NCBI GenBank assembly: GCA_948576075.1
Contig: CAPACI010000001.1
Location: 5,951-31,873 of the forward strand
Source: an uncultured Lachnospiraceae bacterium
GTDB lineage: Bacteria > Bacillota > Clostridia > Lachnospirales > Lachnospiraceae
Reading direction: 5' to 3'
Length of the DNA stretch: 25,923 bases
Position 1 is the stretch's first letter. Every line of letters begins with the position of its first letter. This document shows positions 21,201 to 24,833 of the stretch, one piece after another. The notes beneath the pieces are model-generated. The model did not search any database. It was given only the letters and a program-made list of their open reading frames with translations, and was not told where the DNA came from. A program made the position numbers and the translations under genes.

Positions 21201-22425
21201 CCTTATTTGTCGCAGAATAAAGTGAATCTGTACTGCCGTCCGGCGAACCCCATCCGGCATACAACACCATATCCCCTTTAACTGGAGAACCAAAATCATA
21301 TTTTGTTACAGCCGCAGACTCCATATACCAGCCAGTAAACCCATACATATCTCTTTCGGGGTCAGCTGGCGCTGCCACAGACTTGCCTTCTGCAACTTTC
21401 TGTATCTCATATACATTTTTTGAACCGTCGTTACAGTCAAATGTAACCTGATAACATGCATCCGAATCGGAAGAAATCTGTGTCTGCCTCATCCATTTTG
21501 CATAAAGCGTTAGATTTCCTGTAACTGCTTTTGAAAAATTATAAACCTTTTTAAGCGCTTTATCAGTATGCCATCCTCCAAACACATAGCCGTTTCTTAT
21601 CGGATCAACCGGTTTTGAAACACGCCTGCCTGCAAGAATTTTTTGCGAAGGAGGCATTTTCCCCACATCAGAAGCATTTGAAACAAATGTAACTGTATAA
21701 TACATAATAGGATTTGCCTCTTTTGTGACTATAATCTTGACTGTGACCTTTTTTCCCCCGGAAGTACCTGTCATGATAGCCGCGCCTTCCCTAACAGCTC
21801 TGACATTTCCTGATTTTGTAACTGTCGCTATGGAAGAATTATTAGATTTCCAAGTAATAGGCTGTATTTTTTTTGCAGGACTTGTAACTTTTGCTTTCAA
21901 ATTTACCGACTGACCTGCATTCAACTGATAAACACTGTTGCAAAGCAAGCTGATTTTTTTTGTTTTATTATATATTGTAATTTTACATACAGCTTTAATT
22001 TTCGAATTATGTTTCGACTTTGCAATAATTTTAACAGTTCCGGCCCTTTTCGCTTTCACTTTCCCTTTTGGAGTGACAGTCGCAACTTTTTTGTTTGAAC
22101 TGCTCCATGTTACAGTTTTAGATGCCTTAGATGGAATTGTTTTTTTTACTTTTAAAGTTCTGGATTCTCCTTTTACCATCATCAGCTTACTTTTATTTAA
22201 TACAATCTTTTTTGGCTCATTTCGCCTTTTTGCAGCTTCTGTATTTGCCGGTAACAATGTTAAAACCATTGTAATTGCTAATAATGCCGTTATTAACTTT
22301 CTAAACGTTTTTTTTAATTTCATAATGTACCCCTTTCTGTTCTGCCAACGCTTGTAATCATTATCCCTTCTTTTACACAGGAGATTAAATAAAGAATCTG
22401 ATGCTTTTTCCAATGCCAATCGCAT
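18253..22425 (-). CDS. Giant secreted multidomain cell-surface protein (Big_2, Listeria-Bacteroides repeats, 3x CarboxypepD_reg-like, PPC-like C-terminus)
   Basis: Signal peptide MKLKKTFRKLITALLAITMVLTLLPANTEAA. Big_2-like units (KKVATVTPKGKVKAKRAGTVKIIAK; SSIATVTKSGNVRAVREGAAIMTG). Two Flg_new / Listeria-Bacteroides repeats (YTVTFVSNA...NGYVFGGWHTDKA...LTLYAKW; YQVTFDCNDG...YGFTGWYMES...MVLYAGW). Three carboxypeptidase-regulatory-like beta-sandwiches (IPVTIKREDGNTAYE...; VSVKISKDDMGVTAMETDELGNFSCSLPSGTFLIEITKDGYL; VNLQLRSG...TDSDGEFRF...GNYTITASKEEYL). C-terminal segment YRIVLTWGENPSDLDSHV...APYYYYVYHYDG. There are two candidate starts. ATG 22425 follows GAAGGAGAGCATATT. ATG 22323 (MKLKK) follows AAAGGGGTACATT. 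Confidence 0.75.
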   Translation of the reverse strand: MRLALEKASDSLFNLLCKRRDNDYKRWQNRKGYIMKLKKTFRKLITALLAITMVLTLLPANTEAAKRRNEPKKIVLNKSKLMMVKGESRTLKVKKTIPSKASKTVTWSSSNKKVATVTPKGKVKAKRAGTVKIIAKSKHNSKIKAVCKITIYNKTKKISLLCNSVYQLNAGQSVNLKAKVTSPAKKIQPITWKSNNSSIATVTKSGNVRAVREGAAIMTGTSGGKKVTVKIIVTKEANPIMYYTVTFVSNASDVGKMPPSQKILAGRRVSKPVDPIRNGYVFGGWHTDKALKKVYNFSKAVTGNLTLYAKWMRQTQISSDSDACYQVTFDCNDGSKNVYEIQKVAEGKSVAAPADPERDMYGFTGWYMESAAVTKYDFGSPVKGDMVLYAGWGSPDGSTDSLYSATNKEETIYSISGVEMNGNTLQATINTNSACALVVEFYEDTIGIDGSWEQEAVNACLQKEPITRVATQTPDYGEMICVSIPVETALTDYYLIRARLVELDGEGIEKNLCESFLCIDYSAKYARFEEKTVYDFPEEKVVNFDESTENNFGVFNENVKIINSGNMTNRLVVEDIFIEDEFESNTLDHTYTFYNPDNDLRGLRSGDPVYVTGTAYLFKIKEVINNSDGSITFTTASDVMLTDFYDVLKTDMKSEDSGIQPKIDIIDVETNFSSPTIGGDFSHELIEDTLKVSGTLSGSVQFSIQISYDAKLFAKDYFECNITTLLEGKLGIKGEVSKDNDGNDNNARRADKTEIPLPRVSVPTPVPGLEASINPKIPIEWEASGSISLDYTYSQKSGFQYNSYSGREDIKEKSQTVSLMAEGKAEIKIGPKLSTAIQFCKDVVKVEFSGHSGVKMTAEVEMGSDDVLNHAESKHACDLCVSGEIKWFADLNLKMTFAICDDALKGDIFNIKLFELEGYVNFLPEYPGICFWSLSNSRDSVYRGEKKYGFGPCKNKFYKTTIQVLNDKDETLTGIPVTIKREDGNTAYEKAGNSTYVEYLYDGIYIANANIDGKRVSKSFVTKGNAQTVILSPLSENGELYGHIKDSETGNNIKGVSVKISKDDMGVTAMETDELGNFSCSLPSGTFLIEITKDGYLPFSAYERIEDGEMTYMQEIELISGEGKGGFRGIITNAVTGRPIEDVNLQLRSGWNNTEGEIIKELKTDSDGEFRFGAKKAFGVIFGIPCGNYTITASKEEYLATSFNIIVWPGEDTDNPEQNGTMSPVMADDTYRIVLTWGENPSDLDSHVVGRFSDGEDFHVYYENMWEYDYESDLEVCNLDLDDITGYGPETITLNVNTDAPYYYYVYHYDGSGTLSTSGAQIKVYHGNDPVRTFHVPTGFGQEDYWNVFAIVDGKIISKNTLTFFSDLTYADSRRVSAPDTSKEDRALKN

Positions 22426-24833: not shown

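Follow-up and report, generated by a model that had tools for sequence, protein, structure and literature searches.

The DNA analysed (the window; 25,923 nt, 37% G+C) comprises positions 5,951 to 31,873 of contig CAPACI010000001.1 from an uncultured Lachnospiraceae bacterium (assembly GCA_948576075.1), and its minus strand encodes an MVP-like protein directly followed by a large protein with a Sec-type signal peptide, here called the surface protein. The junction between the two genes offers the surface protein two in-frame ATG codons, each with its own Shine-Dalgarno (SD) sequence: an outer ATG placed as in translationally coupled genes and an inner ATG at the beginning of the signal peptide. 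The inner start and its SD were conserved in relatives and the outer start was absent from them, and both sites may be used here to produce one and the same mature protein. The features of the junction, in window coordinates, are:

24833-22440, minus strand: MVP-like gene, 797 aa (Pfam MVP_shoulder, E 5e-21)
22442-22440, minus strand: TAG stop codon of the MVP-like gene, read from the sequence
22439-22434, minus strand: outer SD AAGGAG, abutting the TAG and lying 8 nt before ATG 22425
22425-22423, minus strand: outer ATG, start of the 1390-aa form, specific to this species and absent from orthologues
22422-22324, minus strand: extension between the two ATGs, 33 codons
22338-22330, minus strand: inner SD AGAAAGGGG, 6 nt before ATG 22323
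22323-22321, minus strand: inner ATG, Met35 of the long form and the conserved start
22323-22234, minus strand: Sec-type signal peptide MKLKKTFRKLITALLAITMVLTLLPANTEA, with n-, h- and c-regions read from the sequence and the same layout in homologues
22233-18253, minus strand: mature part of the large secreted protein, with Pfam domains Big_2 (two copies), Flg_new (two copies), and CarboxypepD_reg

The first-pass annotation had described the stop codon, SD sequence, and both ATGs of this junction, and its description was borne out throughout on the minus strand, including the presence of two plausible initiation sites that each possess an SD. The outer SD is separated from ATG 22425 by the 8-nt spacer AGCATATT, and this ATG is in frame with the 1390-aa open reading frame (ORF; 22425..18253, minus strand), the frame being open over the 34 codons from ATG 22425 to ATG 22323 (MRLALEKASDSLFNLLCKRRDNDYKRWQNRKGYI). 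The spacer between the inner SD and ATG 22323 is TACATT (6 nt), and the corresponding precursors are 1390 aa (long form) and 1356 aa (short form). The stop codon of the MVP-like gene lies 14 nt from the outer ATG and 116 nt from the inner, such that the outer ATG, in contrast to the inner one, has the arrangement of a coupled pair (stop and start within ~20 nt and an SD at the end of the upstream gene). A read-through fusion of the MVP-like and surface proteins was ruled out as the two ORFs occupy different frames. Every public gene call used the long form, including MCI9427691.1 (1390 aa) from a mouse-gut-type metagenome-assembled genome labelled Eubacterium sp., and no called protein corresponding to the 1356-aa short form was found anywhere in a collection of 15 billion sequences. 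The absence of the short form from protein records reflects the behaviour of gene callers rather than biology.

Comparison with relatives identified the inner ATG as the conserved one. An N-terminal alignment displayed an invariant inner Met among seven homologues, and the closest of these (P0002 and P0003 with 67 and 66% identity, respectively) began directly at the signal peptide, as did nearly all top-scoring homologues. A GGAG-type SD (AAAGGAG, GAGGAG, or GGAGGGAG) was located at the inner position, 4-6 nt upstream of the signal-peptide start, in all six relatives for which the DNA was examined. An in-frame stop was present 7-13 codons upstream of the signal-peptide Met in four of the six, comprising the two closest orthologues (66-67% identity) and two more distant ones (L003, L004, L034, and L036 in all). 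L036 has a TTG one codon past its stop that is unused by gene callers and the other three have no intervening start, such that the signal-peptide start is the only realistic one in these four. The lack of the upstream ATG and SD in orthologues had been named beforehand as an observation that would refute the first-pass interpretation, and both were indeed lacking, which favours ATG 22323 as the probable ancestral and conserved start. As the orthologues are without the upstream ATG and SD and carry an SD at the inner position, the long basic N-region previously ascribed to the surface protein is not a feature of the protein family and results incidentally from a species-specific junction. Two homologues of 54-56% identity (P0004 and P0005) were called with N-terminal extensions of 21-25 aa, unrelated to the extension here (L005 3829-3891 and L006 3610-3684). 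Their final IGGR is what the GGAGG of the real ribosome-binding site translates to, and gene callers therefore over-extend starts repeatedly in this family.

The short form opens with a signal peptide of the regular Sec type. The n-region MKLKKTFRK contains five K/R and no D/E residues, the hydrophobic core is LITALLAITMVLTLL with a Kyte-Doolittle window of at least 2.2 beginning at residue 10, and the c-region PANTEA/A (the slash marks cleavage) has the small residues T at -3 and A at -1. Cleavage was predicted from the sequence after TEA and before AKRR, and homologues displayed GEA/A, SEA/A, and GKA/F at the same position.

The strength of the two sites was compared using the anti-SD CACCUCCUUUCU, assumed to be the usual Firmicutes 16S tail as the window contains no rRNA gene. 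The inner site had been regarded as weaker, yet its predicted SD duplex was the more stable (-12.7 versus -9.7 kcal/mol at the outer site) and both sites formed seven contiguous pairs with the assumed tail; the inner SD merely lacks the GGAG core rewarded by gene callers. The context of the inner start was open and A-rich (-35 to +35 fold of -3.4 kcal/mol, mean probability of being unpaired 0.71), whereas the outer site was partly buried in a local hairpin (-9.9 kcal/mol, mean probability of being unpaired 0.46).

The outer SD-ATG was unlikely to be a pure accident. By chance, such a match would fall within any given 116 nt with a probability of ~0.009, and 33 codons would stay open with a probability of ~0.06 at the base composition here; with the further requirement of being in frame (1/3), the combined chance drops to roughly 2e-4 to 3e-4. 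The motif AGGAG-N5-10-ATG occurred 11 times in the window versus 4.1 expected, with about four of the 11 situated inside genes. Among the 15 junctions tabulated in the window, the stop-SD-start layout, with a start 9-11 nt after the stop, recurred in four other tight junctions (CHAT to MVP, ATP-grasp to DUF308, MatE to TetR, and MMPL to the next gene). From this matching layout, the improbability of coincidence, and the expectation that a ribosome ending at the MVP stop would unfold the site, we think that the outer ATG is used to some extent.

The extension between the two ATGs resembled non-coding sequence in its codon usage. Its codon-usage log-odds of -5.9 fell within the lowest 0.1% of in-frame 33-codon windows (mean 13.2, sd 5.8) and was typical of open out-of-frame windows, which averaged -8.8. 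The hydrophobic core of the long form would begin at residue 44, the highest value in a set of 110 homologues (median 7, 90th percentile 17), and the preceding n-region of 43 residues was likewise the largest of the 110; the 34-residue extension carries nine K/R and four D/E residues. In the window and all fetched loci, the 34-aa peptide and the 123-nt junction matched only themselves by tblastn and blastn. The extension had no matching model in Pfam or NCBIfam, and even with E values up to 10 allowed, neither a scan of the 34-aa extension nor one of the first 79 aa yielded the YSIRK, KxYKxGKxW, or ESPR models. An origin as a relic of the gene that follows MVP in relatives was rejected, the pairwise alignments being no better than those of shuffled sequences (best alignment 0.04, uncorrected for six tests). 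No RNA element was indicated, as the 191-nt junction region folded worse than shuffles (z +1.8) and Rfam gave no match at the gathering score in the whole window nor at E up to 1 in 22200-22600. The variants L002, L037, and L038, with an overall divergence of 0.05-0.5%, displayed 0/119 nucleotide differences in the junction plus extension, and selection on the extension consequently cannot be judged from them.

The gene order at the junction was not shared by relatives of either gene. The sample of MVP relatives consisted of 23 genome and three metagenome loci with 40-74% identity. The CHAT-domain gene that precedes the MVP-like gene in the window had no match in the other fetched loci, and the proteins encoded upstream of CHAT in the near-identical contig L002 had none near the MVP relatives. 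The surface protein was encoded downstream of the MVP gene in none of the loci with readable downstream DNA; in most of these, the MVP stop led straight into a hairpin and T-run, with unrelated genes beyond. Conversely, neither an MVP-like nor a CHAT gene was present upstream of surface-protein homologues (0/6 loci), where the upstream genes were unrelated and the orthologues stood behind intergenic regions of their own (e.g., ~240 nt in L003). As the gene order was unshared in both sets of loci, the junction would be a rearrangement specific to this species that removed the usual terminator after the MVP gene.

The genes and signals that bracket the junction on the minus strand are:

25923-24845, minus strand: CHAT-domain gene, 3' part (Pfam CHAT, E 3e-39), running off the window
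24847-24834, minus strand: CHAT-to-MVP junction with TAG, AAAGGAG, and ATGATG, laid out as at the junction of the MVP-like and surface genes
18068-17995, minus strand: intrinsic terminator downstream of the surface gene, with an outer stem of 13 bp and then a U-rich tail
17969-17961, minus strand: extended -10 box TGTTATAAT, preceding the ATP-grasp gene

No sigma-70-like promoter (22324-22600, minus strand) or intrinsic terminator was found by the scanner between the MVP-like and surface genes, and a strong terminator follows the latter (fold -27.9 kcal/mol, z -7.0, 0/200 shuffles as stable), such that co-transcription of the CHAT, MVP-like, and surface genes is a reasonable inference. The pattern scanner missed this terminator as the structure between its stem arms exceeds the loop limit of 3-8 nt. 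The full CHAT gene encodes 886 aa in L002, where a tightly packed run of eight genes ends in CHAT, MVP-like, and surface genes; its upstream part (L002 938-14173) includes genes for a TY-Chap1/YbjN-like chaperone, a TraG/VirD4-like NTPase (438 aa), ClpP, and unknown proteins of 337 and 193 aa. PADLOC gave only weak single-protein matches (mad8 and BovA) and no defence system in the neighbourhood. The proposal that CHAT, MVP-like, and surface genes are expressed as one unit was thus upheld for the anatomy of co-transcription (gaps of 11 nt between CHAT and MVP and 14 nt at the surface gene with no intervening terminator), whereas a functional CHAT-MVP-surface module was unsupported by comparison. 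As the neighbourhood was not conserved, the case allows no firm conclusion on what bacterial MVP-like proteins do.

The MVP-like protein was assigned as such by an MVP shoulder domain (75 bits versus a cut-off of 25) preceded by vault repeats, where Vault_3 was weak and under its cut-off (19.9 versus 28.8 bits), and 6344 homologues were recovered at E <=1e-3 among 8000 candidates scored. Its gene opens with a double ATG, and the second (24830) is probably the real start based upon the homologue consensus MSE... and the 796-aa call in L002. Many loci of MVP relatives were situated among small phage-like genes. The closest relatives (73-74% identity; L030, L031, and L033) lay on contigs full of small ORFs with phage-type genes including DNA ligase, RNA ligase, Thg1, CCA-adding enzyme, methyltransferases, and Band_7, and homologues at 37% identity were found in 462-735 kb “uncultured phage” records (LR756500.1, LR756501.1, and LR756503.1). 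The copy in the window sits among apparently chromosomal genes (MatE, TetR, and MMPL). MVP homologues of bacteria and gut phages have already been described (bioRxiv 10.1101/872010; 10.1101/2023.11.10.566534).

Attachment of the surface protein to the cell surface is an assumption, since no LPXTG-type sortase motif was found in its sequence and no SLH domain by Pfam, and the protein may simply be secreted. SLH domains were present in several homologues (P0006-P0008 and others). Between strains (L037 and L038), the gene displayed 17 non-synonymous and eight synonymous differences with 0.6% nucleotide divergence in the mature part, a pattern that hints at relaxed or diversifying selection, which exposed proteins often show. 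Downstream, the longest-ORF start of the ATP-grasp-like gene (ATG 17947, 453 aa) lies ~14 nt after the -10 box and is without an SD, and a second ATG (17929, minus strand; MLKLCELN..., 447 aa) is preceded by AAAGGAAG and was chosen as the start in L002, the longest-ORF start likely being another over-extension.

The reading that we prefer, held at about an even chance, is that both sites are used and yield the same mature protein. The ancestral initiation at ATG 22323 with the SD AGAAAGGGG would have been retained, giving a normal N-terminal Sec signal peptide, and the inner ATG would probably be the main site for de novo initiation as free 30S subunits could load at its unstructured context. 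In this species only, the surface gene would have ended up immediately downstream of the MVP-like gene, as the final gene of a tightly packed operon, with loss of the usual terminator placing it under read-through transcription. The junction would have added the coupled-type site TAG-AAGGAG-N8-ATG 22425, at which ribosomes finishing the MVP-like gene could re-initiate, the terminating ribosome covering or melting the local hairpin (-9.9 kcal/mol). The outer start, being in frame and open, would place 34 unconserved basic residues ahead of the signal peptide that are expected to stay cytoplasmic and to be cleaved off with the signal peptide by signal peptidase. Both precursors should therefore give the same mature protein, with the predicted N-terminus AKRRNEPKK, as the hydrophobic core and the TEA/A cleavage site are unchanged. 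In this scheme, it is inferred from the sequence that each start is used, that the long precursor is exported and processed, and that the genes are co-transcribed.

Several points weigh against dual initiation. The anti-SD is an assumption based on Firmicutes in general, and the duplex energy at the inner site depends on a bulged helix. Ribosomes elongating from the outer ATG could occlude the inner site, the 43-residue n-region might impair export, and the long form was chosen by all public gene calls. Codon usage over 33 codons is a weak test as a young extension need not be codon-adapted, and the 0/119 nucleotide substitutions in the junction and extension at ~0.5% divergence cannot discriminate between the start models.

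Use of the inner ATG alone is a tentative alternative, in which the 1390-aa call is over-extended and the protein actually made is the 1356-aa precursor, equipped with a standard signal peptide. The outer SD-ATG would then be a leftover (e.g., from a lost gene that once started behind the MVP-like gene) or a chance site of low contribution. All comparative evidence is on the side of the inner start, the extension has non-coding-like codon usage and makes the long-form n-region an extreme outlier among the 110 homologues, the non-homologous extensions of P0004 and P0005 ending in a translated SD demonstrate the same caller error, and false sites do occur (~4/11 AGGAG-N5-10-ATG matches being intragenic). 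However, ribosomes would not easily pass over a strong SD with ideal spacing right after a translated stop, genuine coupled junctions in the window have the identical layout, an in-frame and open SD-ATG has a joint chance of only roughly 2e-4 to 3e-4, and no donor gene for a leftover was found. The opposite case, strict coupling to the MVP-like gene with initiation at the outer ATG only, a 64-residue extended signal peptide, and an inner SD in decay (GGAG to GGGG), was considered improbable. It would account for a junction architecture typical of coupled genes in the window, the start chosen by all gene callers, an open frame, and the loss from the inner SD of the GGAG core present in all orthologues, but the inner site is unstructured and can still pair over seven contiguous bases with the assumed 16S tail, and the extension matches none of the YSIRK, KxYKxGKxW, and ESPR models, is conserved in no relative, and is non-coding-like in codon usage.

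Separate transcription of the surface gene from a weak promoter of its own within the 102-nt stretch, giving an mRNA that lacks the outer ATG, was also judged distinctly unlikely. A candidate read by eye (TTTAAT 22389-22384, an 18-nt spacer, and GATAAT 22365-22360, minus strand) fits the consensus at 8/12 positions and orthologues do stand behind their own intergenic regions; against this, the candidate is below the threshold of the scanner, which reported no promoter-like site in 22324-22600 (minus strand), 8/12 matches are common in DNA of 37% G+C, and the missing terminator after the MVP-like gene means that read-through transcripts would exist anyway. Finally, there is a very slight chance that the adhesin-like surface gene was captured into the CHAT/MVP-like operon and that the new coupled start is adaptive, its basic 34-residue extension tying output of the secreted protein to synthesis of the MVP-like shell protein. 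If so, the extension might delay or redirect export as a newly evolved extended signal peptide, and a bacterial vault-like particle would be linked to a surface or secreted partner.

The practical value of the case lies in correcting the start to ATG 22323, as annotation of the upstream ATG can make predictors miss export of the protein, and in caution against inferring function from this gene order. It would also illustrate how a rearrangement can give a gene a second, coupled start with no cost to the mature product.

Compared with known systems, the junction resembles coupled operon junctions in that AAGGAG abuts the MVP stop and an ATG comes 8 nt later, with no terminator or promoter between the genes, and differs in having a second, conserved start 102 nt downstream in the same frame and in a coupling, read from sequence alone, that is shared by no relative of either gene. 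Over-extended start calls on signal-peptide proteins are addressed by orthologue-based start finders such as StartLink, and the case is similar to these in that the longest ORF with the best GGAG motif was picked and the signal peptide was buried 34 residues inside, P0004 and P0005 presenting the same artefact with unrelated extensions; unlike such calls, the upstream site here is very good, in a coupled position, and may really be used. The long form would resemble the YSIRK-G/S and KxYKxGKxW signal peptides of Gram-positive surface proteins and the ESPR of autotransporters in placing a long basic region, presumably removed by signal peptidase, before the hydrophobic core, but those families are defined by conserved motifs whereas the extension here is unconserved and had no match at E up to 10. 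In-frame alternative initiation giving N-terminal isoforms has reportedly been mapped by retapamulin ribosome profiling in E. coli, and the likeness consists of two in-frame starts in one gene that each have their own SD; here, in contrast, the difference lies only in the cleaved segment and no distinct mature isoform is expected. As both starts should give the same mature protein, the case is one of ordinary start-site ambiguity that combines two well-known phenomena, coupling junctions and in-frame upstream ATGs that bury signal peptides.

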